DNA of 41,825 bases from Kofleriaceae bacterium (lineage in GTDB: Bacteria; Myxococcota_A; Polyangia; Haliangiales; Haliangiaceae): contig JBGARE010000037.1 of assembly GCA_044230415.1 (NCBI GenBank), forward strand, positions 64,001 through 105,825, written 5' to 3'. The notes below the pieces were generated by a model, which saw only the letters and a program-made list of their open reading frames with translations, did not search any database and had not been told where the DNA came from. The position numbers were made by a program, and so were the translations under genes. Shown one piece after another: positions 1 through 29,222 of the stretch (position 1 is the stretch's first letter; every line of letters begins with the position of its first letter).

Positions 1-1426
1 GCAGCATCGACTTCAGCTCGGGCTGATCGACCGGATAGAACAGCGGGATGTGGACCTCGGCGCGGCCCTGGCGCTTGAGATCGACCGGCAGGTTATCCGG
101 GCGCGCGGTCAGCAGCATCCAGATGATCTTGCCGCGATAGGCGGTGTCGCCCATCTGCGAGGCGATGAGCGCGAACACGCGACCACCGACGCCGCTGTCA
201 CCACCCGAGTCGCGATCACCGAGCATCGCGTCTGCTTCGTCGATGATCACGACGACCGGACCCATCGAGCGCAGCACGTTGAGCACGCGCTCGAGGTTGC
301 CTTCCGTCTCGCCGACGTACTTGCTGCGGAAGTTCTTCAGCACGACGGCCGGGATGCCGATCGATCCGGCGACGCACGTCGCGAGGAAGCTCTTGCCCGT
401 TCCGACCGGACCGCAGAACAGATAGCCCATCGGCACGGTGTCGAGCTCGCCGCGCTTGATCAGCTCGGCATCGTCGAGCAACCGCTTCTTCGCGGCTTCG
501 TGACCGACGACGGTATCGAGGCCCCACTTCGGCTCGACGAACTCGAGCAGGCCCTGCGCCTGGCGCTCGATCAAGCGCTTCTTCAGATCCTTGAAGTACA
601 CGCGGTCGAGGCGGCGATTTCCCTCGAGCGTCGACTGCACGAGGACCTCGAGGTCCGTGAGGCCGATGCCGGCGGTCAGCTTGCCGAGCTCCGCGACGCT
701 GTAGTCCGAGAACGTCGCGAGGTCCTTGCCGCTCGCTTTGATCTGCGCGTCGAGATACGCGGTGCGCTCGTCGGCGGCGGGGAGCGGCACTTCGATCGAC
801 GCGACGTGCGGATTTCCAGCGAGGCGATCGTTGATGCTCGACAGCCGCGGATCGATCAGCACGAACGCCATGTTCAGGCGCTTCACGTACGGGCTCGACG
901 ACCAGTTGAGCAGCGTCACGAGGTGCGTCTGCTCGTTGAGATCGAGGTTGTCGCCGCTCGGCGCGACGTATCCGGCGTGGTCGATGATGATCGCGCAGCG
1001 GAGACGCTTCTCCGGATCGGCCATCACGTTCTTCTGCACGAACAGATCGATCGCGAGCAGTCCCTTCGTCGGATCGCGGGGCAGGGCGCGTAGATCGCCG
1101 AGCCACTTGTTCGCGGTCTCGACCATCTCTTGAAGCCGCTTGCTGTTCGAGCCGGCGCTGCAGCGAAGGCCGCCCGCGAGGTCGTACTTGATCACGAGGT
1201 CCCAGCGGCCGAACAGCTGCTCGGAGAGAAACTCGGTCAGGCCCGTCCACCGATCCGGTGCGGAGCGGACGACATCGAACGTGTTGCCATGCACGATGAA
1301 CATCGAGGTCGTGCCGGAGAAGTACAGCTCGGCGAGCTTGCCGGCCCACGCAGGAAAGTGCGGCGGCAGCGCGGTCGCCTTCGTCACGCCATCGGAACCC
1401 GCCAACGTCTTCTTGTCGTCGCTCAT
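1..1426 (-). CDS. Classic-clade AAA+ ATPase, partial (C-terminus lies beyond the window start). It has a ~290-aa N-terminal domain of unknown type, then Walker A GPVGTGKS, an SKYVGETEGNLERV motif, Walker B VVVIIDEAD and sensor-1-like LLTARPDNLP.
   Basis: I reverse-translated bases 1..1426 by hand. The reading frame is continuous from ATG (1426..1424), which overlaps the upstream gene's stop as ATGA. AAA motif order and spacing resemble the Vps4/FtsH/p97 clade, not the bEBP clade (no GAFTGA). The gene is absent from the ORF track because it runs off the window edge. Confidence 0.85.
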   Translation of the reverse strand, partial: MSDDKKTLAGSDGVTKATALPPHFPAWAGKLAELYFSGTTSMFIVHGNTFDVVRSAPDRWTGLTEFLSEQLFGRWDLVIKYDLAGGLRCSAGSNSKRLQEMVETANKWLGDLRALPRDPTKGLLAIDLFVQKNVMADPEKRLRCAIIIDHAGYVAPSGDNLDLNEQTHLVTLLNWSSSPYVKRLNMAFVLIDPRLSSINDRLAGNPHVASIEVPLPAADERTAYLDAQIKASGKDLATFSDYSVAELGKLTAGIGLTDLEVLVQSTLEGNRRLDRVYFKDLKKRLIERQAQGLLEFVEPKWGLDTVVGHEAAKKRLLDDAELIKRGELDTVPMGYLFCGPVGTGKSFLATCVAGSIGIPAVVLKNFRSKYVGETEGNLERVLNVLRSMGPVVVIIDEADAMLGDRDSGGDSGVGGRVFALIASQMGDTAYRGKIIWMLLTARPDNLPVDLKRQGRAEVHIPLFYPVDQPELKSML

Positions 1427-2373
1427 TTGCGCTGGCCTTCCACGGCGCGCGGTGCGGTCAGATCGGCGTCGAGGATCGACGGCGTGGTGTCCGCGTCGCT
1501 GACGCCCGTGATCTGTTGCAGCTCGCGAATCGTTGCTTCCGTCTGCGAGATGCCTTCGCTGATCGCGTCGATGCGATGCGACATCTCGTCGGGATCCGTG
1601 TGTCCGACGGCCATCTCGGTGACCGCCTGGATCTTGTTCTCGAGGCGATCGAGCTCGGTCGCGATGAACTCGGCGTTCTGCCGCGCCTTCTCGACGTTCT
1701 CCTTGCGCGCTTCGGCCGTGGAGATGCTGTCGTCGAGAGAGCGAATGATGCGGTCGTCTGCTTGGTTCGCTTCGCCGACAGAGTCCGCGCGCTTCTTGCG
1801 GCGCACCTTGAGGTCGGCGACGGTCTTGTCGATCGCGCCTTCATCGGCCGCTTGCAGAAAGCGCGAGATCGCCTGCTCGCTGAGGAGCAAGCGCAAGAAC
1901 ACCCAGAGCAGACGGTCGAGCGCCGGCGTGCGCAGCTCGGTCGAGGCACCGCTCGCATCGCGCGTGTCACCACGGACGGCGTTCGCGATCCGCGACATCT
2001 CCACGCAGCGCGCGCGCAGGCGCAAGAAGCGCGAGCGGCGATCCTCGGTTAGCGACTTGAGGACATCGAGGATCTTGTCGCGGGCGTTGCCTTCGCCGTC
2101 GACGGCGTTGCGGGTGCCGCTGATCCGTCGCGCGCCGGGGCCTTCGCCAGCCTCGGAGCGCGCCTTCGCGTCGATCGCGGCTTGGAACCGTGGCAGCGTC
2201 GTGAGCCCCGCGAGGTACACGACCTCACCGGCCGCGACGAGCGGCAGCGCGATGTCCGCGTGTCCGGACACCACCGCGGCGGCGGCGGCACCGCCGAACA
2301 CGAGGAGGTTCCAGCGGAACATGAACGCTTCCTTCAGATAGCGAAGCAGTCCGGCTTTCTTCTTCTCTGCCAC
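1423..2373 (-). CDS. Hypothetical membrane protein: two N-terminal TM helices (LLVFGGAAAAAVVSG / LPLVAAGEVVYLAGLTTL) followed by a ~230-aa predicted helical/coiled-coil domain.
   Basis: ORF track 316 aa. Its stop overlaps the AAA+ start (ATGA). Its start (apparently GTG) lies 1-2 nt from the ABC ATPase stop. It has a hydrophobic N-terminus and a charged heptad-like C-terminal region; no recognisable family. Confidence 0.65.
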   Translation of the reverse strand: MAEKKKAGLLRYLKEAFMFRWNLLVFGGAAAAAVVSGHADIALPLVAAGEVVYLAGLTTLPRFQAAIDAKARSEAGEGPGARRISGTRNAVDGEGNARDKILDVLKSLTEDRRSRFLRLRARCVEMSRIANAVRGDTRDASGASTELRTPALDRLLWVFLRLLLSEQAISRFLQAADEGAIDKTVADLKVRRKKRADSVGEANQADDRIIRSLDDSISTAEARKENVEKARQNAEFIATELDRLENKIQAVTEMAVGHTDPDEMSHRIDAISEGISQTEATIRELQQITGVSDADTTPSILDADLTAPRAVEGQRK

Positions 2374-2374
2374 G

Positions 2375-3645
<1,271 letters not shown>

Positions 3646-3649
<4 letters not shown>

Positions 3650-4854
3650 AGATCCTTCCGCCACCGGAACGCCTCGCGCTGGAGGCCGCGAAGGAGGAAG
3701 TCGAGCGTGAACGCGACGAACGTGATCACGAACAGCAGCAGATAGATCTGCTCGTAGAGGCCAAGGCGCTGGCTCGTGTTGAGCATCGTGCCGAGCCCGT
3801 GCGGCGTGTTCACGATCTCGACGAGCATGATGTAGCCGAGCGCCAGCCCGAGGAGGAAGCGCAAGCTCGTGATGATGTCCGGCAACGCGAGCGGGATGAG
3901 CACCTTGCGCACGATCTGCCATCGCGACGCGCCCAAAGTCTGCGCTGTCTCGACGTATCTCTCGGGCACGATCGAGACCGCCTTGACCGTGTCGCTGAAC
4001 ACGAACGGAACGACCGCGAGGAAAATGAACATCCACTTCTGCTTCTCGCCGTCACCGAACAACAGCAGCGTGAGCGGGATCAGCGCGCCCATCGGGACCG
4101 AGCGCAAGAAGATGACGAGCGGCTCGAGCGCACTGCCGACACCGCGATTCGACCCCGCCAACACACCGACGGAGATGCCGATCAGCGCGGCGAGGCCGAT
4201 GCCCTTGAACACGCGGATCAGCGTGTCGATCAGCGAGTCGGTGAAGTCGCGATCGAGCAACTTGCCGAGCGCCCCGAACACCTCGCCCGGGCTCGGCAAC
4301 TTCGACGGCGACACGATGCGCGCGGTCGGGTCTTTGCCGTAGGTCAGGACGAACCACAACAGGAGCACGAACGCGATCAGTCCCGCGCCGAGCGCCGCGC
4401 GCACGAGCGGCGGCGGATCCGCGCGCAGCGTCTTCCACCACGGAGGTGCGGTGGGGAGCTTGTTCGGATCGTCGTCCTCGTCGATCGCCTCGGCTTTCGG
4501 CTCGGGCTTCTTCGGCTCGGGCTTCTTCGCCTCGGCTTTCGGCTCGGGCTTCGCGTCGACCTTCGGCGCGGGCTTCGCGTCGACCTTCGCCTCGGGCTTC
4601 GCCTCGGGCTTGGCCTCGGGGGACTTCGCCTCGGCTTTCGGCGTCGCCGGCGGAAGCTCGTCGGGAACCGATGCGGGCGCGGGCTTCGGCGGCGGTTCGC
4701 CCGAGAGCTCGGCTTCGAGCGCGGCGAGCGCTGCTGCTTCGGCCGCAGGATCACGCGGCGGCTTCGCGGGCGCAGCTTCCGCCTTCGGCGCATCCGCCTT
4801 CGGGGGCGCGTCCGTGGGAGCCTTCGGCGGCGGTGGATCCTTCGGTTCGGTCAC
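3646..4854 (-). CDS. ABC transporter permease (BPD_transp_1 / NitT-TauT type) with a ~150-aa low-complexity Pro/Ala/Lys/Glu-rich N-terminal cytoplasmic extension (PEAKPEAK repeats).
   Basis: ORF track 402 aa. Six predicted TM helices in the C-terminal 250 aa. The end resembles the conserved permease loop (TSQRLGLYEQIYLLLFVITFVAFTLDFLLRGLQ). The N-terminus has tandem KPEA/KVDA repeats. Confidence 0.85.
4490..4640. repeat. Tandem short-period nucleotide repeats (ggcttcg / cgggcttcg units) encoding the PEAKPEAK / KVDAKP low-complexity linker of the permease.
   Basis: Directly visible as reiterated 'ctcgggcttcttcg / cgggcttcgcgtcgaccttcg' blocks on the plus strand. Confidence 0.7.
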
Positions 4855-4860
4855 GTCTCG

Positions 4861-6609
4861 CTACTGGGCCTCTGCCGGAACGACCTTGACCTCGACGCGA
4901 CGGTTCTTGGCGTGGTTATCGGGATCCTTCGGATCGGCGGGCTTCGCCCAGCCATAGCCCGTCGCCGTGAACTGGTTCGGCGCCATCTTGAACTTGTTCA
5001 CGAGCGCTTCCTTCACCGCGTTCGCTCGGCGAGTCGACAGCTCCTTGACCAAGCTCTCGTCGGCGTTGCCCTTCATCGAGCCGTCGGTGTGACCCTCGAT
5101 CACGATGCGCGCGGCACCGAACTGACCCGCGAGCTTCGCGATCTCTTCGATCGTGTACTCGACGTTTCCGTCGTAGAACACTTCGCCCGAGCCGGCCTTC
5201 GCCGGGACCTTCTTGTAGACCTCGTAGCTGTTCGGGAAGAAGTTGATCGTCACCGTCTTCGTGAGCACGGCGCTCTCGACGTTGACCTCGTTGCTGCCCG
5301 CGGGCGTGAACTTGAACTCGTACTCGTTCTTGCTCTCCGCGTATTTCGGCTCGCTGCCGAGCTTCTTGATCACGGAGAAGTCCATGATCTTGTCGAACTC
5401 GGTCTTGTCGTTGACCGCGCGGATCGCCTTGTAGAGGACGAACGCCGTGTTGTACGTGCGCTCGAAGTTCGTCGGGTTCGACGCGACCATGAAGAAGTCG
5501 CGGTTCTCCGCGTAGTTCGTCCAGTGCGCGTCGGCGAGCATGCCCGAGCCCGTGCCGGGCGGCAGGCCGTAGAAGTTGTCCATCATCTTCGCGACTTCTT
5601 GCTTCTTCTGATCGTCCTTCGACAGCTCGTCGGTCGCGTCGAGGATGCCGCGCACGAGACCCTCGATGATCTCCGGGTTGTCACGTGCGAAGTCCGCGCG
5701 CGCGAACCACACATCGGCGATCAGCTTGTTCGCGGTCGCCGTCGACACGAGCATCTTGTTGCCCATGCCCGTCTTCGTCAGGTTGTAGATGTCCGGCGCC
5801 CACGAGACCACGCCGGCGATGTCCTTGTTCTGGTTGAACGCGGCGGCCGCTTGGAACGCGTCCTGCGTGAACTTCATCTTCACTTCGCTCGGCTGCACGC
5901 CGCCGTTGAGCAGCACGTTCAAGAGGAAGTAGTGCGACGGCGAGTTCTGCGCGAGCACCACGGTCTTGCCGCGGAGATCCGAGACGTCCTTGATCGAGTC
6001 GCGAACGACGATGCCGTCGCCGCCGTTCGACCAGTCGATCTGCTGATACACGCGCGGCATCGTGCGCGGATCGCGCTTGAGGCGCTCGATGATGAGCGGC
6101 AGCATGTCGACCGTCGCCCAGCCGATGTGCACCGAGCCGTTCGCGAACGAGTCGCCCATCGCGACCGGGTTGTCGATCAGCTTCAGCTTGACCTGGAACT
6201 CGCCGCCTTTGGCGTCCTTCCAGACCTTCTTCGGTTCCGCGCCACCGTTCGCCCAGATGATCGGCGCCCAGCCTGCCCACACGTTCACCGCGAACTGCAC
6301 GACGCGCGGCTTGCCGAGCTTCTCGTAGTCCGAGGTTCCGGGGACGGTCGGCAGCGTCGTCGACGGCTCGAACTTGTACTCGGTGACCGTGGTCGCCGGT
6401 GCGTTGGGATCCGGGTTCTCGGCGGTCGTGGCCGAGCCGTTCTTCTTCACGAGGTTCGGATCGATGTAGTCGCCGCTGCCGCTACCGGACTTTCCGTCGC
6501 CGGACTTCTTCGCGTTGCAGCGATAGAACGCGATGCCGCAGAGTCCGATGACGACTGCGATCACCGCGATGAAGAATGCAGGCTTTGGTTTTCCAGCTCC
6601 GTCCGCCAT
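4861..6609 (-). CDS. Membrane-anchored periplasmic substrate-binding protein (NMT1/SsuA/TauA-like, NitT/TauT family) fused to a C-terminal OmpA-like peptidoglycan-binding domain.
   Basis: ORF track 582 aa. N-terminal signal-anchor AFFIAVIAVVIGLCGIAF. The central ~330 aa are SBP-like (VVLAQNSPSHYFLLNVLL..., GVVSWAPDIY). The C-terminus reads RIVIEGHTDGS...TRRANAVKEALV...ATGYGWAKP...NRRVEVKVV, a canonical OmpA_C motif set. GC content is somewhat lower than in neighbouring genes. Confidence 0.85.
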   Translation of the reverse strand: MADGAGKPKPAFFIAVIAVVIGLCGIAFYRCNAKKSGDGKSGSGSGDYIDPNLVKKNGSATTAENPDPNAPATTVTEYKFEPSTTLPTVPGTSDYEKLGKPRVVQFAVNVWAGWAPIIWANGGAEPKKVWKDAKGGEFQVKLKLIDNPVAMGDSFANGSVHIGWATVDMLPLIIERLKRDPRTMPRVYQQIDWSNGGDGIVVRDSIKDVSDLRGKTVVLAQNSPSHYFLLNVLLNGGVQPSEVKMKFTQDAFQAAAAFNQNKDIAGVVSWAPDIYNLTKTGMGNKMLVSTATANKLIADVWFARADFARDNPEIIEGLVRGILDATDELSKDDQKKQEVAKMMDNFYGLPPGTGSGMLADAHWTNYAENRDFFMVASNPTNFERTYNTAFVLYKAIRAVNDKTEFDKIMDFSVIKKLGSEPKYAESKNEYEFKFTPAGSNEVNVESAVLTKTVTINFFPNSYEVYKKVPAKAGSGEVFYDGNVEYTIEEIAKLAGQFGAARIVIEGHTDGSMKGNADESLVKELSTRRANAVKEALVNKFKMAPNQFTATGYGWAKPADPKDPDNHAKNRRVEVKVVPAEAQ

Positions 6610-6612
6610 CGA

Positions 6613-7383
6613 TTACTCCGTCACCTTGGTGGGTTCTGCCTTCTGCGGAGCTTCCTCTGCAGGGCCGAGATCCTTCGCGGCCTGGACGACGGGGCTCGTC
6701 TCGGGCGCGCGCATGCCGAGCTCGACCTCGAGATCCTTGAGCGCGTCGTCGGCCATCGAAGCCTCCATCCGCTCCTCGGCTTTGATCTTGTCGATGCCTT
6801 CGTTCGACAGATCGCTCGCGACGCGGGCCTTGCCGCGGTTCGTGTCGATCTTGCGCTGGATGACATCCTCGAGCTGACCGAAGTCCGTCGTGACGTCCAT
6901 GTTGAAGCTCTGCGTGAGCTTCGCGACCTCGGCTTCCGCCTCGGACATCTTCAGCTCGGCGTCGTACTTCGAGATCTTGTCTTTGACCTCGACGAGCTTC
7001 TTGTTCGCGTACTGGATCTTCTTGAGGTTGTTCGTGTACGCGGCCTCGTGCATCGCGAGCTGCTGCTTGTTCTCTTCGAGCTGCGTCTTCGCCTTCGTCA
7101 GCTGCAGCGCGAACGAACCCGCGGTCTCGCGATCGCCGGACTTCAAGTACGCCTTGGCCTGCGCGGTCAGCTTGTTGACCTGGTTTTCGCCGTCCTTGAC
7201 CTGTCGAGACACACGCTCGACGAGGCCACGGTATTGCTCGAGGCCAACACGCCCCTCTTTCAGCTGTTCGACCGCTTGGTCGTACTCGTACTGCATCTGG
7301 GCGATCGGATCGGCCTCCCAGAAGAAGTTGGCGAGCTTGTTGAGCTGAGCCCTGATCGCACCAAAGAACTTTCCGAGAATCAT
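6613..7383 (-). CDS. pspA: PspA/IM30 (Vipp1) family protein, a bacterial ESCRT-III superfamily member.
   Basis: The start was chosen at MILGKFFGAIRAQLNKLANFFWEADPIAQMQYEYDQAVEQLKEGR (a typical PspA N-terminal amphipathic helix), 23 codons inside the track ORF. A GGAGG RBS sits ~8 nt upstream. It is long helical/coiled-coil throughout and ends 3 nt before the SBP gene start. Confidence 0.85.
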   Translation of the reverse strand: MILGKFFGAIRAQLNKLANFFWEADPIAQMQYEYDQAVEQLKEGRVGLEQYRGLVERVSRQVKDGENQVNKLTAQAKAYLKSGDRETAGSFALQLTKAKTQLEENKQQLAMHEAAYTNNLKKIQYANKKLVEVKDKISKYDAELKMSEAEAEVAKLTQSFNMDVTTDFGQLEDVIQRKIDTNRGKARVASDLSNEGIDKIKAEERMEASMADDALKDLEVELGMRAPETSPVVQAAKDLGPAEEAPQKAEPTKVTE

Positions 7384-7501
7384 CGCGAAGCCTCCGGCCC
7401 GCGCGCACGTGGGACGCGGGGGACCACAAGATAGGAGGGACCCAGACCCCACTCAAGCCACCTGGTCAAAAACTGCCCGGTGGCCGCGTACTTGATGAAA
7501 C

Positions 7502-7852
7502 TTAGCGAAACGGACCATCCGCGACGGGATCGGGGTTCACCCACGTGAAGCCCTGCAGATCGTTCCACGGCACGCTCTTCGGCTCGCGCACGTAGGTCTC
7601 GTGATAGCCGCACTCCGTACACACGTACGCTTCGAGCTGACCGACGAGCGGCAACGCCTTGCCGACGCCATCGACGCGGGTCGCCGTGCGCTGGATGCCG
7701 AGCGATCGCGACACCGCCTGGCGTGCCGCGTTGATGAACTGATGATCCTCGCGATCGTCGCGCGCCACGAGGACGTCGTTCGCGTCGACTTGGAACGCGA
7801 TGTGTCCGATGCGAAGGCTCTGGCACTTGGGACATTGCTTGGACCTCTTCAT
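7502..7852 (-). CDS. Small zinc-ribbon protein (CPKC...CTEC).
   Basis: ORF track 116 aa. It has two CxxC pairs ~70 aa apart and a divergent promoter region toward 7979. Confidence 0.55.
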   Translation of the reverse strand: MKRSKQCPKCQSLRIGHIAFQVDANDVLVARDDREDHQFINAARQAVSRSLGIQRTATRVDGVGKALPLVGQLEAYVCTECGYHETYVREPKSVPWNDLQGFTWVNPDPVADGPFR

Positions 7853-7978
7853 CGCGCGCGAGCGTAGCGCGCTACGACGTCACAGATGCATCACTCGTAA
7901 GCACGCGCCGACGGCGATCAACACCAACGTTTCACCCAAGGCGCCGCGCGTCTCTGTGTCGTGCGCTAGTCTACGAGC

Positions 7979-8749
7979 GTGCGTGAGGTCAGTCGCGGGC
8001 TCGGTGACGTCGGCAAGGCGCTCGATTTCCTGAAGGCGCGACCGCGGCTGTGGAAGTGGCTCGTGATGCCCGCGATCATCACGCTGCTCGTCCTCGCCGG
8101 TATCGTGCTCGGTGTCGTCGCGCTCGTCGATCCGCTCGTCGTGTGGGTCGCGGCGCACGTGCCGAGCTGGCTCGAGACGATCGTCAGCTGGATCCTGCGC
8201 ATCGTCGTGATCCTCGGCGTCGGCATGGCCGCGATGGTCGTGTTCGTCGGCGTCGCCGGCATGATCGCGGGCCCGTTCAACGAGATGCTGTCCGAAGCGG
8301 TCGAGGAGGAGATCACGGGGAAGCCCGGACCTCCATTCGCGCTCGGCGCGTTCGTTCGCGATGCGCTCGTCGGGATCGGGCACGCGCTGCGCCGGTTGGC
8401 GCTGAGCCTCGTGTGGCTCGTGCTGTTGTTCGTGCTCGGCTTCGTCCCGGTCGTGGGCACGATCGCCGCGTTCGTCCTCGGGCTGTACCTCGCGGCGGCG
8501 GGCTGCGCGTACGACTGCTACGACGCGGTGATGGCGCGGCGCGGGATGTCCTACGCGCAGAAGCAGGCGTTCCTCGCCGCGCATCGGCAGCGATCGATGG
8601 GACTCGGCGGTGCGGTCGCGGGGATGCTGCTCGTGCCGTTCGTGAACCTCGTCGCGCTCGGACTCGGCGCCACGGCGGCGACGCTCGCGCTCGTCCCGTC
8701 AGCGAATGGGCAGCATGACGACGCCGCCGGTCGACGCGGCGATCGGTAG
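7979..8749 (+). CDS. EI24/CysZ-like (DUF540) polytopic inner-membrane protein.
   Basis: ORF track 256 aa with 4-5 hydrophobic helices, and N-terminal LDFLKARPRLWKWLVMP and GPFNEMLSEAVEEEI motifs typical of the family. It was preferred over the antisense Arg/His-rich ORF 7880..8584. Confidence 0.6.
   Translation: MREVSRGLGDVGKALDFLKARPRLWKWLVMPAIITLLVLAGIVLGVVALVDPLVVWVAAHVPSWLETIVSWILRIVVILGVGMAAMVVFVGVAGMIAGPFNEMLSEAVEEEITGKPGPPFALGAFVRDALVGIGHALRRLALSLVWLVLLFVLGFVPVVGTIAAFVLGLYLAAAGCAYDCYDAVMARRGMSYAQKQAFLAAHRQRSMGLGGAVAGMLLVPFVNLVALGLGATAATLALVPSANGQHDDAAGRRGDR

Positions 8750-11096: not shown

Positions 11097-11104
<8 letters not shown>
9722..11104 (-). CDS. Outer-membrane beta-barrel protein (signal peptide; C-terminal ...GVEGQFLF with a terminal Phe).
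   Basis: ORF track 460 aa. It has alternating amphipathic beta-strand pattern and a C-terminal aromatic OMP signature. Its start overlaps the upstream response-regulator stop by 8 nt. Confidence 0.65.
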
Positions 11105-12575
<1,471 letters not shown>

Positions 12576-12582
12576 GGGCTGG

Positions 12583-14913
<2,331 letters not shown>

Positions 14914-16724: not shown

Positions 16725-18185
16725 TTGACCGTGATCCCGCGCGAGCTGCTCGTGAAACTTCCGGCGGTGACGGCGCTCGCCGACGCTGCCGCCGAGCACG
16801 GCAAGGCACCGCGCTGGGCGCTGATCGAAGCCGCGCGCCGCGCGATCGCGGCCAAGCGCAGCGCGATCCTGGGCACGTCGACGATCCCCGACGGCGGATC
16901 CGCGGCGCCGCCGATGAGCGCGACCGACGCGATCATCGACGCCGCCGAGGTCGCCGCCGCTGCCGCCGCGCTCGCGAAGCCAGCGCTGCGCAAGGTGATC
17001 AACGCGACCGGTGTCGTGCTGCACACGAACCTCGGGCGCGCGCCGCTGTCCGCCGACGCCCGCGCCGCGATCGACGACGCCGCCGGTGCCTACACGAACC
17101 TCGAGTACGACCTCGCGACGGGCGAGCGCGGATCGCGACACGATCATCTGCGCGGCCTGTTGTGCGATCTCACCGGCGCCGAGGACGCGCTCGTCGTGAA
17201 CAACAACGCGGCCGCGATGGTGCTGTGTCTGGCCGCGCTCGCGAGCGACAAGGAGATCATCGTCTCGCGCGGCGAGCTGATCGAGATCGGTGGATCGTTT
17301 CGCTTACCGGACATCCTCAAGCTGTCGCGCGGCGTGCTCGTCGAGGTCGGGACGACGAACAAGACGCATCGCAAGGACTACGAGAGTGCGATCCGCACCG
17401 CGCCACCGGCGGCGCGCGCGGCGTCGATGATCGGTCCCGCGAATCGCGCGACCGGCCTCTTGCTCAAGGTGCATCGCTCGAACTTCGCCATGGTCGGGTT
17501 CACGAGCGAGGTGTCCATCGTCGAGCTCGTCGAGCTCGGGCGCGCGCACAAGCTGCCCGTGATGGTGGACCTCGGCTCCGGTGCGCTCGTCGACAACGAT
17601 ACGCAACGCGCGTGGGGCTTGCCAGACGAGCCCACCGTCGCCGACGTGGTGTCGACGGGGGCGGACCTCGTGACGTTCTCTGGAGACAAGCTGCTCGGCG
17701 GCCCGCAGGCCGGCATCGTCGTCGGAACGCGCGAGGCGGTGGAAGCGGCGCGTGCGCATCCGCTGATGCGTGCGTTGCGCCCCGACAAGCTGACGCTCGC
17801 GGGACTCGCGGCCACGCTGTCCGCGTATCGCGATGGCAAGCCAACGGAGCTCCCCGCGCTGCGCATGCTATCGACCTCGGCGGATAACCTGAAGGTGATC
17901 GCCGATGCACTCAAGCGAACGATCGGGCCGGTCAAGGGACTGACGATCGTCGTCGAGGCGTGCACGTCCACCGTCGGTGGAGGCGCGATGCCGACCGCGG
18001 CGATCCCGTCGTTCGCCGTCACGATCAAAGGCGCGAGCGCGACCGCGATCGAGCGCGGCCTGCGCGCGGCGGGCATCGTGTCTCGCATCGACACGGGCCG
18101 CGTGTGGCTCGACCTGCGTACGATCGCGCCGGGCGAGCTCGGTGACGTCGCGGAAGCGGTGCGTGCGCTCGCTGCTCCCGAATAA
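16725..18185 (+). CDS. selA: L-seryl-tRNA(Sec) selenium transferase (selenocysteine synthase).
   Basis: Strong full-length similarity to SelA: NATGVVLHTNLGRAPLS, EYDLATGERGSRHDHLRGLLCDLTGAEDALVVNNNAAAMVL, SRGELIEIGGSFRLPDI, GTTNKTH, FSGDKLLGGPQAGIVVG, RALRPDKLTLA. Confidence 0.9.
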   Translation: MTVIPRELLVKLPAVTALADAAAEHGKAPRWALIEAARRAIAAKRSAILGTSTIPDGGSAAPPMSATDAIIDAAEVAAAAAALAKPALRKVINATGVVLHTNLGRAPLSADARAAIDDAAGAYTNLEYDLATGERGSRHDHLRGLLCDLTGAEDALVVNNNAAAMVLCLAALASDKEIIVSRGELIEIGGSFRLPDILKLSRGVLVEVGTTNKTHRKDYESAIRTAPPAARAASMIGPANRATGLLLKVHRSNFAMVGFTSEVSIVELVELGRAHKLPVMVDLGSGALVDNDTQRAWGLPDEPTVADVVSTGADLVTFSGDKLLGGPQAGIVVGTREAVEAARAHPLMRALRPDKLTLAGLAATLSAYRDGKPTELPALRMLSTSADNLKVIADALKRTIGPVKGLTIVVEACTSTVGGGAMPTAAIPSFAVTIKGASATAIERGLRAAGIVSRIDTGRVWLDLRTIAPGELGDVAEAVRALAAPE

Positions 18186-24541: not shown

Positions 24542-25897
<1,356 letters not shown>

Positions 25898-26127
25898 ATC
25901 TCGTGGGTATCACGCCGTCGCGCCTCGCGCGAGCAGCGGGTCACGCGAGCAGCGGGTACCGCATGATCGCGCTGGTGCCCCGCCGCATCGCCGTCTGCCA
26001 GTTGACGGCGCCCAGCCGCACTCGAGGACGATGCTCTTCTCCCGGATCGTCGCGACGAGCGATCGAGAGAGCGCGTCCGCGGGGTGAACCGACGATGTCC
26101 GGATCGAGCCTGTAACAGACGTATTCG

Positions 26128-26536
26128 ACGCCCACGCGGCGGGCTACGTGCCCGCCTTTCCGCGGAAGCCGTCGTCGATGTTCGATGCATGGCGTCGAGT
26201 CGACACGCCTTCGCGTCGTCCGGGCGGCCGAGGTCTTCGCCGTCGATGCGGACGTTCGCGCCCACGGGCGTCGAGTCGCGCATCGAGTCGTAGCACTTCG
26301 CATTCGTGCAGGCCGCTGCAGTCGGCGTGCGGACGTACGCGCCCACGTGGGCGTCGAGTCGGTGCGCCCACGTGGGCGTCGAGTCGCCGGTCGTTGCGGC
26401 GTGCGCGTTTCCGCGGAAGCGTTGTCGATGTTCGATGCGCCCACGTGGGCGGGCTACATGGCAGCTGGTCGTTGCGGCGTGCGCGTTTCCGCGGAAGCGT
26501 CGTCGATGTTCGATGCGCCCACGTGGGCGTCGAGCG
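26128..26536. repeat. Intergenic repeat array. There are two full 62-bp direct repeats (period 78 bp; 26390..26451 and 26468..26529) plus a degenerate partial copy (~26150..26200). Each carries the perfect palindromes TTCCGCGGAA and CGCCCACGTGGGCG. Extra copies of CGCCCACGTGGGCG followed by TCGAGTCG lie at 26340..26353 and 26365..26378, with degenerate copies near 26128 and 26258.
   Basis: Seen directly in the sequence. Coordinates were cross-checked against track ORFs 26148.. and 26306.., which translate the repeats (AFPRKR...SMRPRGR twice). It lies between the histidine-kinase stop (26596) and the response-regulator start (25897). Confidence 0.75.
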
Positions 26537-26595
26537 TGCGCACGGGATCTCGTGGTGGTCGCGATCGGATCAACTCACCGGTGATCCGGTGGTGT

Positions 26596-28398
26596 TCAGG
26601 TCGCGTTCGGAATCACGAGCCGAAACTCGGCCCCACGGCCATCGGGACCCTCGCCCAGCTCGATGGATCCGCCCGCGGTGGCGACCAGGTGCTTGCACAC
26701 GGCGAGGCCAAGGCCAGTGCCGACACCCGCGGCCTTCGTCGTGAAGAACGGATCGAACACCTTCGCGCGATCGGCGGGCTTCACGCCCGGACCCTCGTCG
26801 CGCACGAGGATCTGGGTCGCGATGCCGCCGGGCGCGGGCTTCACGATCAGGGTGATCGTGTTCCCGCGCGACGTGCCATCGGGGTCTTGTGTTCCCGACA
26901 TCGCCTGCGCGGCGTTCTGGACGAGGTTGACGAGGACTTGCTGGAGCGAGTGCGCGTCGATGGCGAGCGGCGTGGTCGACTGCACGTCGGTGACGTAGCG
27001 GACCTTCGCCTTCTTGAGCTGCGGTTCGAGGAGGGCGCCCACGTGCCGCGCGACCTGCGCCGGGTCGCTCTCGCCGCGATCGGTGGCGCTGGTGGCGACG
27101 GGGCCAGCGGTGACGATCGATCCCGAGCCGCGGGGCGTGCGTGCGTATTCGAGGAGGCCGCCGATGATCTTCTTCATCCGCTCGGCCTCGCTCGCGATGA
27201 GCTCGAGGCCGGCGCGATCGGGGTGGCCCTCGGGTTTGTCCTCGAGCAAGAGGTTCGCGTAGCCCATCACCGTGGTCAGCGGGTTGTTGACCTCGTGCGC
27301 GACCTGCGCGGACATCACGCCGACGGATGCGAGGCGATCACCGCGCGCGAGGGCGGCTTGCAGCTCGGCGCGTTCGGCGATGCGCTTGGCCATCTCGTCG
27401 AGGCGCTGGCCGAGCACGCCGATCTCGCCGGGACCGTCGACGACGTGGTCATCGTCGGGGGCGATCGTGCCGCTCGCGATGGCATCGGCGCGGCGGGCGA
27501 GGGCTTCGAGGGGGCGTGTGAGGCGCGTCGCGAAGAACACGCCGAGGGCGAGGGCGAGGGCGAGGGCGGCACCGCCGATGATCAAGGTGTCGCGCGTGGT
27601 GCGGCGGGCGAGGGCGTAGGCCTGGGCTTCGGGTTGTTGGTGAAGGATGGCCCACCGCACGCCGCGCAGTGACTGATAGCTCGAGAGGTTTCGGTAGGCG
27701 GTGACCCAGCCGTGCGTCGCGATCGTCCCTTCGACCGACGAGGCAAGCGCGCGATCGACCGCGGGATCCTTTCCGGCGAGGCTCTGCGTGCCGACCGGGC
27801 CTTGTTCGCTCGACGCGACCGGGACACCCGCGCCGTCGACGACGAGCACGCGCGCACCGGCGCCGAGTCGCGCGGCCGACAAGAGGTCGCGGACGAAGCC
27901 GAGGTCGAGGCTCGCGACGACGACGCCCATGAGCTCGCCCGTGCGGCCACGGGCCTGGACGACGAGCTGGACGACGGTGCGGCCTTCTACGTGGCGTGCA
28001 TCGCCGATGTAGCCGCCGAAGCTGTGGCTGCCGACGTCCGCGCCCGCGGGGACGACGTCGCCGTAGAGGAGCGCGCCCTCGGGATCGACGATCGACAGCG
28101 AGTGCACGATCGGCACGTCGCGGCGCAGTCGCTCGAGGAGGAGCTGCGTGGTCTTCGTGTCGGTGGGCGCGTCGGCCCACGTGGCGGCGGCGAGCTCGAC
28201 CGTGCGCCGCGAGTCCTGCAGCGTGCCGTCGAGGGCGGCGCCGAGCGCGCGAATGTGGGCGAGCGCGCCGCGCAGGACTTCGCGTTCGACATCGCCGCGC
28301 GCGCGAAAGATCGCGAGGGCACCGACGACGATCGTGGGCACGATCGCTGCGAGCGCGAGGACGAGCAGGACTCGCCAGCGCAGGGTGCCTTGGTTCAC
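26596..28398 (-). CDS. Sensor histidine kinase: TM1, a periplasmic (Cache-like) sensor domain, TM2, HAMP, HisKA (HEVNNPL), HATPase_c.
   Basis: The start was taken at the GTG (VNQGTLRWRVLLVLALAAIV), 111 codons inside track ORF 26596..28731. That start overlaps the upstream gene's stop (GTGA). The kinase C-terminal boxes are present (GLGLAVCKHLVATAGGSI). Confidence 0.85.
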   Translation of the reverse strand: MNQGTLRWRVLLVLALAAIVPTIVVGALAIFRARGDVEREVLRGALAHIRALGAALDGTLQDSRRTVELAAATWADAPTDTKTTQLLLERLRRDVPIVHSLSIVDPEGALLYGDVVPAGADVGSHSFGGYIGDARHVEGRTVVQLVVQARGRTGELMGVVVASLDLGFVRDLLSAARLGAGARVLVVDGAGVPVASSEQGPVGTQSLAGKDPAVDRALASSVEGTIATHGWVTAYRNLSSYQSLRGVRWAILHQQPEAQAYALARRTTRDTLIIGGAALALALALGVFFATRLTRPLEALARRADAIASGTIAPDDDHVVDGPGEIGVLGQRLDEMAKRIAERAELQAALARGDRLASVGVMSAQVAHEVNNPLTTVMGYANLLLEDKPEGHPDRAGLELIASEAERMKKIIGGLLEYARTPRGSGSIVTAGPVATSATDRGESDPAQVARHVGALLEPQLKKAKVRYVTDVQSTTPLAIDAHSLQQVLVNLVQNAAQAMSGTQDPDGTSRGNTITLIVKPAPGGIATQILVRDEGPGVKPADRAKVFDPFFTTKAAGVGTGLGLAVCKHLVATAGGSIELGEGPDGRGAEFRLVIPNAT

Positions 28399-29222
28399 GT
28401 CGCGGAGGATAGACGAAGTCCAGCGGCGATCGCGGCCGCGACCGGCTCGAGTCGGACGATCATGTCGAGCTGCGTGCGCGCGAGGTGCAGCTGGGGCGCG
28501 AACATCAGCTCGCGGCGGGCGGTGATGCCATCGCCGATCTCGTAGCGGCGCACGTCGGGTGGCAAGGACAGGAGGAGGTCGCCGAGCGGGCGCACGTAGT
28601 GGAGCTGGTACGGCGAGATGCGCTCGAGGATGGCCACGGTGTCGCGGTCGCTCGTGCCGGCGGCGAACGCGCGCTCGGCGGCCACGCGGAGATCGTCGCC
28701 GCTCGCGATGCGCTCCTCGAGATCCGCGCACTGCCGCGCGAGATCGCGGCGGGCGTTCGCGATCAGCTGCTTCGGATCGAGGGCCCGCGCGACCCGCTTC
28801 TTCGCGACCGGGGCGCTCGCTTGCTCGACGCGCCGGAGGACGAGTGCGCGGTAGGACGCGGCGAACAGGATCACGAACAGCGTCTCTTCGAACGGACGCG
28901 GCGGTGCGACGGTCACGAGATCGTCGACGAGCGCGAGCACGCCGGCGAGCGTGAGCACGTAGCGGCGGCGCGGCGTCCGGCCCTTGCGGCGCGGAGGGCG
29001 CAGCGTTCGGATGCGGCCGCGGCGGCCGAGCGCTTCCATCGCGCGGCGGACGCGCGTGAGATCGAGGTCGGCGCCGGGGTGGCGGACGTCCATCTCGATC
29101 CAGTTGCGGAACAGCAAGTAGAAGAACCGCACGTCGCGCTGCTGGAAGCCACGCACCTCGTCGCGATCGACGGTCGCGACCAGATCGGCGGCGAGCAGAG
29201 ACGCGGTCAGGAGGCTATCCAT
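28395..29222 (-). CDS. Hypothetical protein; a possible winged-helix regulator (weak PaaX/PadR-like 'R..GRRGRIR...RRRYVLTLAG' wing).
   Basis: ORF track 275 aa. It is translationally coupled to the downstream HK and divergent from the nitroreductase/PaaK-like pair across a palindrome-containing 74-bp spacer. Confidence 0.5.
   Translation of the reverse strand: MDSLLTASLLAADLVATVDRDEVRGFQQRDVRFFYLLFRNWIEMDVRHPGADLDLTRVRRAMEALGRRGRIRTLRPPRRKGRTPRRRYVLTLAGVLALVDDLVTVAPPRPFEETLFVILFAASYRALVLRRVEQASAPVAKKRVARALDPKQLIANARRDLARQCADLEERIASGDDLRVAAERAFAAGTSDRDTVAILERISPYQLHYVRPLGDLLLSLPPDVRRYEIGDGITARRELMFAPQLHLARTQLDMIVRLEPVAAAIAAGLRLSSAT

Follow-up and report, generated by a model that had tools for sequence, protein, structure and literature searches.

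Within a stretch of 41,825 nucleotides from a Kofleriaceae bacterium (GenBank assembly GCA_044230415.1, contig JBGARE010000037.1, forward-strand positions 64,001 to 105,825; called the window here, with positions counted from its first letter), a gene designated X encodes a 316-residue protein with a predicted membrane anchor. X is the fifth of six tightly packed genes on the minus strand, which encode in this order PspA, a solute-binding protein, an ATP-binding cassette (ABC) permease, an ABC ATPase, X and an AAA+ ATPase. From pspA to the AAA+ gene, the intergenic gaps are +3, +6, -4, +1 and -4 nt. Here, X may be the membrane scaffold or adaptor of a transporter cassette, coupling the binding protein and the importer to a membrane-maintenance module of PspA and AAA+. 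This reading is tentative and we give it a probability of about 40%. In its favor are the packing of the operon, the synteny observed in 80 loci, the modular loci, the conservation of the hydrophobic hairpin of X, an anchor shared by the binding proteins and a pore-loop AAA+ that has no membrane segment of its own.

Mechanistically, an amphipathic helix and a two-helix hairpin would keep the ~200-residue six-helix bundle attached to the inner membrane, and the tail of X (Pro-x-Ile/Leu-Leu) would pack back on its own bundle. The cassette, which encodes an OmpA-fused TauA/NMT1-type binding protein, a permease of TauC type, an ATPase of TauB type and X, is nested between pspA and the AAA+ gene in this lineage. 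The hairpin would dock to those parts of the binding protein and the transporter that lie in the membrane, and the bundle together with the tail would be presented to the cytoplasmic PspA/AAA+ module. [quoted passage not shown]

X is a real, conserved gene of a large bacterial family. This is based on a GC content at third codon positions (GC3) of 0.85, which is similar to that of the neighboring genes, on a public protein identical to X (P0001, found on 15 contigs of public assemblies), on 1245 homologues in a 90%-clustered protein database and on 700 representatives of 50%-identity clusters (E<=1e-3). The latter are mostly 280–300 residues long, align end to end and display the same architecture. 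The start codon of X is a GTG located 1 nt past the TGA of the ABC ATPase gene, with a Shine-Dalgarno-like GGGGGA 6–11 nt 5' of it. At the other end, the stop codon overlaps the start of the AAA+ gene. This overlap was already noted in the original prediction, which was made from the sequence alone, and it is borne out together with the nature of the next gene (PF00004, E 1e-23).

1423 to 2373, minus strand: gene X, 316-residue membrane-anchored helical-bundle protein (open reading frame list, GC3, homologues)
1423 to 1426, minus strand: ATGA overlap of the X stop codon (TGA, 1425-1423) with the AAA+ start codon (ATG, 1426-1424), read from the sequence

The structure of X was modeled with AlphaFold2 from an alignment of 95 diverse homologues. 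The model is a compact bundle with a predicted local distance difference test score (pLDDT) of 87.5 and a predicted template modeling score of 0.68, so that the term "helical bundle" suits X better than "coiled coil". Along the sequence, the following segments can be distinguished:

2320 to 2349, minus strand: residues 9–18, amphipathic N-terminal helix with conserved Y12, A16 and F17 (AlphaFold2, conservation, hydrophobic moment)
2194 to 2325, minus strand: residues 17–60, conserved hydrophobic helical hairpin, predicted membrane anchor (hydropathy, pLDDT 92–96, nearly invariant columns)
2101 to 2151, minus strand: residues 75–91, variable disordered linker (pLDDT 46–72, gapped alignment columns)
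1507 to 2100, minus strand: residues 92–289, predicted cytoplasmic six-helix bundle (AlphaFold2 model, conservation)
1426 to 1506, minus strand: residues 290–316, non-helical C-terminal tail with the conserved TGL...xP-x-(I/L)-L (model, conservation)

Residues ~17–60 are the sole strongly hydrophobic stretch of X, with Kyte-Doolittle 19-residue means of 1.2–1.6, which are borderline values. This stretch is modeled as helices 20–35 and 39–57 separated by a 3-residue turn, and a further helix follows at residues 61–74. The hairpin is predicted to insert into the membrane. Since basic residues flank it on both sides, both termini of X, including the helical domain, are probably cytoplasmic; cleavage of the first helix as a signal peptide, should it occur, would leave the C-terminal domain in the cytoplasm all the same. 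The six helices of the bundle comprise residues 92–107, 110–133, 149–175, 178–198, 205–257 and 261–289, and the family alignments reveal the motifs RF..LR.RC, LDRLLW.FLKLL and ELDRIE.KI within it. No significant internal repeat was detected in the bundle. Residues 291–310 of the tail are modeled at a pLDDT of 83–84 despite their non-helical form, which suggests that the tail is docked on the bundle. Thus, of the two N-terminal transmembrane (TM) helices and the long helical region originally proposed, the hydrophobic hairpin and the helices are found in the model and membrane insertion is predicted, but the helical region is better described as a bundle than as a coiled coil. One family member from the 50%-cluster set (P0270) carries the soluble bundle of X behind an N-terminal DUF3999 and a single TM helix, which replaces the hairpin.

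The most conserved positions across the subfamilies include A16/F17, WNLL, SGxPD, Glu50, the bundle motifs and the C-terminal TGL...xP-x-(I/L)-L. At least 90% of the members keep WNLL, the SGxPD turn, Glu50 and P298. Here, WNLL opens the first hydrophobic helix and Glu50 lies in the middle of the second one. Such strong conservation together with a buried acidic residue suggests that the hairpin makes specific intramembrane contacts beyond plain anchoring. One possible partner is found on the binding proteins encoded next to X. In these, a TM helix comes after an initial GKPKPxF(F/W)I (window 4861-6609, minus strand; locus L010, 4384-6102; locus L102, 2796-4748), and this anchor is common to two classes of binding proteins, NMT1+OmpA and SBP_bac_8+VWA. 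As a weak possibility, the anchor would be the partner of the X hairpin. The tail motif is conserved also where no AAA+ is encoded nearby and is confidently modeled against the bundle; the tail is therefore more likely to belong to the fold or to act as a switch than to be a peptide dedicated to the recruitment of AAA+.

For the genomic context, one genome per species was scanned. Relatives of X were present in 301 genomes, and the 80 best loci were examined, in which X is 44–90% identical and which belong nearly all to Kofleriaceae, Haliangiales or other Myxococcota. Among the loci with enough flanking sequence, PspA and the binding protein are encoded upstream of X in 51 of 51, the ABC ATPase gene adjoins X in 66 of 67, and AAA+ lies downstream of X in 69 of the 70 Myxococcota-type loci, the exception being L046. 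By tblastn, AAA+ was located 0–210 nt 3' of X. The six-gene order is thus essentially invariant in the Myxococcota clade.

Distant members (26–40% identity) were sampled via exact-protein look-ups and a metagenome scan. Here, the full six-gene operon was found again in five loci (L004, L096, L098, L101, L106), and shorter contigs harbor ABC-X-AAA+ or X-AAA+ (L007, L097, L099, L104, L105, L107). The adjacency of X and AAA+ persists in several subfamilies that are just 31–40% identical to X. Other distant loci are composed differently. In five (L008, L011, L093, L094, L100), the set is limited to binding protein, permease, ATPase and X, beyond which unrelated genes begin, and no PspA or AAA+ adjoins. 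A sixth (L005) contains the ABC genes and X without an adjacent binding-protein gene and with neither PspA nor AAA+ as a neighbor. In L108, PspA, AAA+ and a small gene termed s97 are followed by the cassette ending in X, so that AAA+ is located away from X. The loci L102 and L103 display the order PspA, SBP_bac_8+VWA protein, X and AAA+ without permease and ATPase, and in L010 a binding protein fused to VWA is followed by X alone, again without permease and ATPase. Similar arrangements have been listed in a computational survey, namely PspA, solute-binding protein and TM+Snf7 in Archangium, PspA, coiled-coil protein and TM+Snf7 in Salinibacter, and a PspA-AAA+ pair without an X-type protein in Clostridium (Ravi et al., 2024, mSystems, PMC11237479).

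Over the family, the upstream binding protein, permease and ATPase are steadier neighbors of X than AAA+, and the stop and start codons often overlap. In distant members, X is most commonly accompanied by the binding-protein/ABC cassette alone, with PspA and AAA+ lacking. Two modules are found apart from each other, one consisting of X and the anchored binding protein, to which permease and ATPase may or may not be added, the other of PspA and the two-domain AAA+. They are joined in Myxococcota and in several further lineages. A role of X as adaptor or substrate of AAA+, as originally proposed, is compatible with the adjacency in the Myxococcota-type loci, but six distant loci have no adjoining AAA+ and in L108 both genes lie apart. 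A lack of conserved synteny with the AAA+ gene had been named beforehand as an argument against the proposal. Since the linkage is strong within clades but not family-wide, this argument applies by half.

The operon type itself has been described computationally. By gene order and domain content, the X locus matches the operon PspA / PBPB-OmpA / permease / ABC ATPase / (TM+Snf7) / inactive AAA+AAA (Table S3 of PMC11237479), for which the X-type protein was labeled a "membrane-anchored divergent Snf7" (Ravi et al., 2024); the exemplar "SIG+TM+Snf7" in this table is OGG56892.1 from Ca. Handelsmanbacteria. The operon type as well as the protein family were thus already flagged in 2024, and the locus reported here adds a new member. 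A literature search did not find experimental work on this operon type.

Whether X belongs to ESCRT-III was addressed on several levels. Neither X nor the 95 diverse members matched PF03357 (Snf7) or PF04012 (PspA_IM30) in Pfam at E<=1, NCBIfam gave no match of X to the ESCRT-III superfamily, and the profile of the 95 sequences retrieved no ESCRT-III, PspA or Vipp1 chain from the PDB sequences. As references for profile comparison served six ESCRT-III proteins (yeast Snf7 and human CHMP4B, CHMP2A, CHMP3, CHMP1B and CHMP6) and E. coli PspA; each sequence was verified as a member of PF03357 (E 2e-16 to 1e-58) or PF04012. Using hhalign, a test of limited power here, the X family gave non-significant values of P=0.29 against the six ESCRT-III proteins and of P=0.17–0.35 against the operon PspA and E. 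coli PspA. The control of PspA against ESCRT-III yielded P=0.021 over 180 columns. The pipeline is therefore able to detect the ESCRT-III fold in a true member but not in X. A 14-residue hhalign match that pairs X 278–291 (TEATIRELQQITGV) with the very C-terminal end of yeast Snf7 (DEKALRELQAEMGL) is attributed to chance, its probability being 0.3%. Also the model does not match the ESCRT-III fold, a hairpin of helices 1 and 2 followed by helices 3–5, since the longest helix of X comes fifth. With respect to a coupling to a disassembling AAA+ of the Vps4/CdvC type, the adjacent enzyme belongs to the classical clade, has a degenerate first AAA domain (D1) and no MIT domain, and in several distant loci X and AAA+ are not neighbors. 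X is probably not a polymer subunit of ESCRT-III, and the kinship to ESCRT-III or PspA raised by the original prediction is not upheld. Nor is the SNARE-like alternative upheld: a SNARE heptad motif together with a tail anchor at the C-terminus is lacking in X.

X does not contain the three-helix repeats of PhoU (PF01895) either. Its matches in Pfam, NCBIfam and PADLOC were of coiled-coil type and at noise level only. PADLOC revealed no defense-system signature; IetA matches AAA+ solely via the generic AAA domain. Some homologues of X carry the JGI names "methyl-accepting chemotaxis protein" or "CheA", but Pfam finds no MCP, HAMP or CheA domains, and these automatic names are rejected. Searches of the PDB sequences with X and with the 95-sequence profile returned nothing meaningful, and Foldseek found no significant match to a PDB structure (TM-scores <=0.27). 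As X has no significant match among solved structures, it may represent a new helical fold family.

Three other explanations have to be weighed against the scaffold. If X was a highly divergent membrane-anchored, Snf7-like ESCRT-III subunit, it would nucleate PspA or co-polymerize with it and would be extracted or recycled by AAA+, and the operon would encode a bacterial ESCRT-III/Vps4-like machine. The published label points in this direction, as do the all-helical nature of X, its long hairpin of helices 205–257 and 261–289, the conserved C-terminal tail and the adjoining pore-loop-competent AAA+; moreover, the best hhalign path, which is non-significant, places X 184–285 (profile positions) on helices 1–3 of Snf7. 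However, the empty family and profile searches and the hhalign values given above speak against it, the helices of X, which run short, short, medium, medium, 53 and 29 residues, differ in their length order from ESCRT-III helices 1–5, and many family members have no PspA and AAA+ nearby. We regard it as quite improbable. X could instead be a purely accessory or regulatory subunit of the TauT/NitT-type importer, which in a PhoU-like manner gates the ATPase according to the state of the membrane or the cytoplasm, the adjacency to AAA+ reflecting nesting only. This would fit to the ABC ATPase gene being the most constant direct neighbor, with an overlap of 4–8 nt (L004, L008) or a gap of 1–14 nt, to the cassette with X occurring without PspA and AAA+ in at least six distant loci, and to L108, where it is the cassette, not AAA+, that X accompanies. 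Nevertheless, L102/L103 and L010 pair X with a binding protein in the absence of permease and ATPase, contexts of PspA with TM+Snf7 but without an ABC transporter have been listed (Ravi et al., 2024), and the matches of X to PhoU cover ~62 residues, which is noise expected of generic helical bundles and contains no PF01895 match. Such a role is possible but doubtful.

A transmembrane signal relay is the third explanation. Here, the periplasmic binding protein, with its OmpA or VWA fusion, would offer its single TM anchor as the partner of the hairpin, which would pass the status of ligand or cell wall to the bundle in a chemoreceptor/HAMP-like manner, thereby controlling the transporter, PspA and AAA+. 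Nearly all loci, also those that lack a transporter, indeed have the gene of an anchored binding protein upstream of X, and the GKPKPxF(F/W)I anchor occurs in both classes of binding proteins; this short motif could, however, reflect just the positive-inside bias. The conservation of the turn SGxPD, periplasmic in the predicted topology, and of the intramembrane Glu50 would fit as well. Among the weak top matches of Foldseek are cytoplasmic domains of chemoreceptors (probability 0.66–0.80, E 0.4–0.6), but these E-values are non-significant and the TM-scores low, no HAMP or MCP signal domain is found by Pfam, and L005 has no adjacent binding-protein gene. A relay function is likewise judged quite improbable.

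Several points weigh against X as the scaffold between cassette and PspA/AAA+ module. The hairpin and the tail motif are equally conserved in subfamilies without adjacent PspA or AAA+, and for this reason both elements may act for the transporter alone. Distant members were sampled in small number, ~20 loci, and partly with an AAA+-linked subfamily as seed. How X lies in the membrane, every contact with a partner and the direction in which regulation runs are matters of inference.

The remaining genes of the operon are:

6613 to 7383, minus strand: PspA/IM30, a bacterial ESCRT-III protein, gene 1 of the operon (PF04012, E 4e-11)
4861 to 6609, minus strand: solute-binding protein with N-terminal TM anchor, NMT1/TauA-like domain and C-terminal OmpA peptidoglycan-binding domain (domain matches)
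3646 to 4854, minus strand: TauC/NrtB-like ABC permease whose N-terminal extension (~150 residues) is rich in Pro, Ala, Lys and Glu (open reading frame, domain matches)
2375 to 3649, minus strand: TauB/NrtC-like ABC ATPase whose N-terminal extension (~80 residues) is Pro/Ala-rich (domain matches)
1 to 1426, minus strand: the first 475 codons of the 595-codon AAA+ ATPase gene (PF00004, E 1e-23)

The true PspA/IM30 gene, four genes upstream of X in the same operon, is a context that the original prediction had missed. The PspA subfamily of this operon is highly conserved, with 70–96% identity in loci where X is 44–90% identical. It contains a conserved C-terminal extension, LEVELGM(R/K)APETxPV...KDLGPA, in contrast to E. 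coli PspA, which has no such extension. This extension might be a partner-binding peptide.

The nearest relatives of the transporter in NCBIfam are the taurine/nitrate/sulfonate (NitT/TauT) systems. Since every match is below the curated cut-off, the transporter is a distinct subfamily. The ABC_tran domain of the ATPase is matched as two stretches, which are split by an insertion. A 71-nt direct repeat with 82% identity is present at 3512-3582 and 4702-4772. Both copies encode the same peptide, RDPAAEAAALAALE, and lie in the Pro/Ala-rich N-terminal extensions of ABC ATPase and permease, respectively, and the motif is present in orthologous loci as well; a shared docking motif and a recent duplication are both conceivable. 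A tandem repeat with a period of 12 nt (4525-4632, minus strand) encodes KPEA-type repeats in the low-complexity cytoplasmic extension of the permease.

The AAA+ gene crosses the start of the window and encodes 595 residues in the source contig. Its D1 is degenerate, with VHGNTFD at the place of Walker A and IIIDHAG at the place of Walker B. The second AAA domain (D2) contains the intact motifs GPVGTGKS and IIDEAD as well as the pore loop KYVG. By its motifs, the protein is a Cdc48-like AAA+ with a dead D1 and an active D2; among solved structures, it is closest to the D2 domains of AFG2, VAT and Cdc48/p97. Beyond the window start, two small genes follow (L001, 12758-13051 and 13051-13590), encoding an acidic helical protein of 97 residues and a protein of 179 residues with a weak match to DUF3805. 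Both are usually found 3' of AAA+ in Myxococcota loci, and the 97-residue gene (s97) remains with PspA-AAA+ in the rearranged L108.

In the wider surroundings, two pairs of a histidine kinase and an NtrC-type sigma-54 response regulator are encoded on the minus strand (11097-14913 and 24542-28731). As one such pair lies upstream of the operon on the same strand, a sigma-54 promoter was suspected in front of pspA; no -24/-12 site within 2 mismatches was found near 7384-7980, and the window-wide count of such sites corresponds to chance. A Cys-rich, zinc-ribbon-like protein of 116 residues is encoded 118 nt upstream of pspA (7502-7852, minus strand) and is conserved only in close relatives. A divergently oriented gene for a membrane protein of the EI24/CysZ family is present as well (7979-8749, plus strand). 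Furthermore, the gene of SelA, the L-seryl-tRNA(Sec) selenium transferase, is present at 16725-18185 (plus strand), and the source organism therefore probably makes selenoproteins.

The operon type bears on how bacterial PspA/Vipp1 polymers are recruited to specific membrane sites and disassembled. Found in at least 301 species genomes, it brings together a true PspA, an AAA+ with a pore loop and X as a conserved membrane protein, and represents a candidate for the recruitment and the ATP-driven turnover of bacterial ESCRT-III. The candidate cycle of recruiter, ESCRT-III and AAA+ would be linked to a cell-wall-tethered ABC importer, and it is credible as well as widespread. A Vps4-like ATPase appears to be absent in bacteria (2025 review, PMC7619361), and ESCRT systems having both ESCRT-III and Vps4 are limited to the archaea and the eukaryotes (Makarova et al., 2024). 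If X indeed were the receptor that couples these parts, the operon would provide bacteria with a genuine equivalent of the ESCRT-III/Vps4 cycle, made up of a recruiter, a polymer and an ATP-driven recycler, which current reviews state to be absent from bacteria. Its value is tempered by the computational description of 2024 and by the inferred nature of the function of X.

Compared to known systems, the locus is closest to the operons of Ravi et al., which have the same six-gene order, an inactive N-terminal AAA copy, an OmpA-fused binding protein and a TM plus helical protein at the position of X. The ESCRT-III/Vps4 systems, in which Snf7, the CHMPs or CdvB act with Vps4/CdvC and to which PspA and Vipp1 are counted, are resembled in that the operon joins a true PspA and a classical-clade pore-loop AAA+, and in that X, like ESCRT-III subunits, is helical, predicted to be membrane-associated and equipped with a conserved C-terminal peptide. 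In contrast to them, X has no detectable sequence or fold similarity to ESCRT-III, AAA+ carries a dead D1 instead of an MIT domain, and the predicted anchor of X is an integral hairpin and not a peripheral helix 0. With PhoU of the PstSCAB system X shares the nature of a helical-bundle protein encoded right after the ATPase gene of an ABC importer. PhoU is, however, soluble and built of two three-helix repeats with metal sites, whereas X contains a hairpin, no internal repeat and no PF01895. Small membrane partners are common in PspA systems (PMC11237479). PspB/PspC from E. coli, LiaI from B. subtilis, PspM/Rv2743c from M. tuberculosis and the archaeal CdvA are small partners of this kind, either integral or membrane-binding, encoded in the same operon and thought to recruit PspA or ESCRT-III. 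By analogy, X would most likely work like PspB/C, LiaI, PspM or CdvA, to which it is unrelated.

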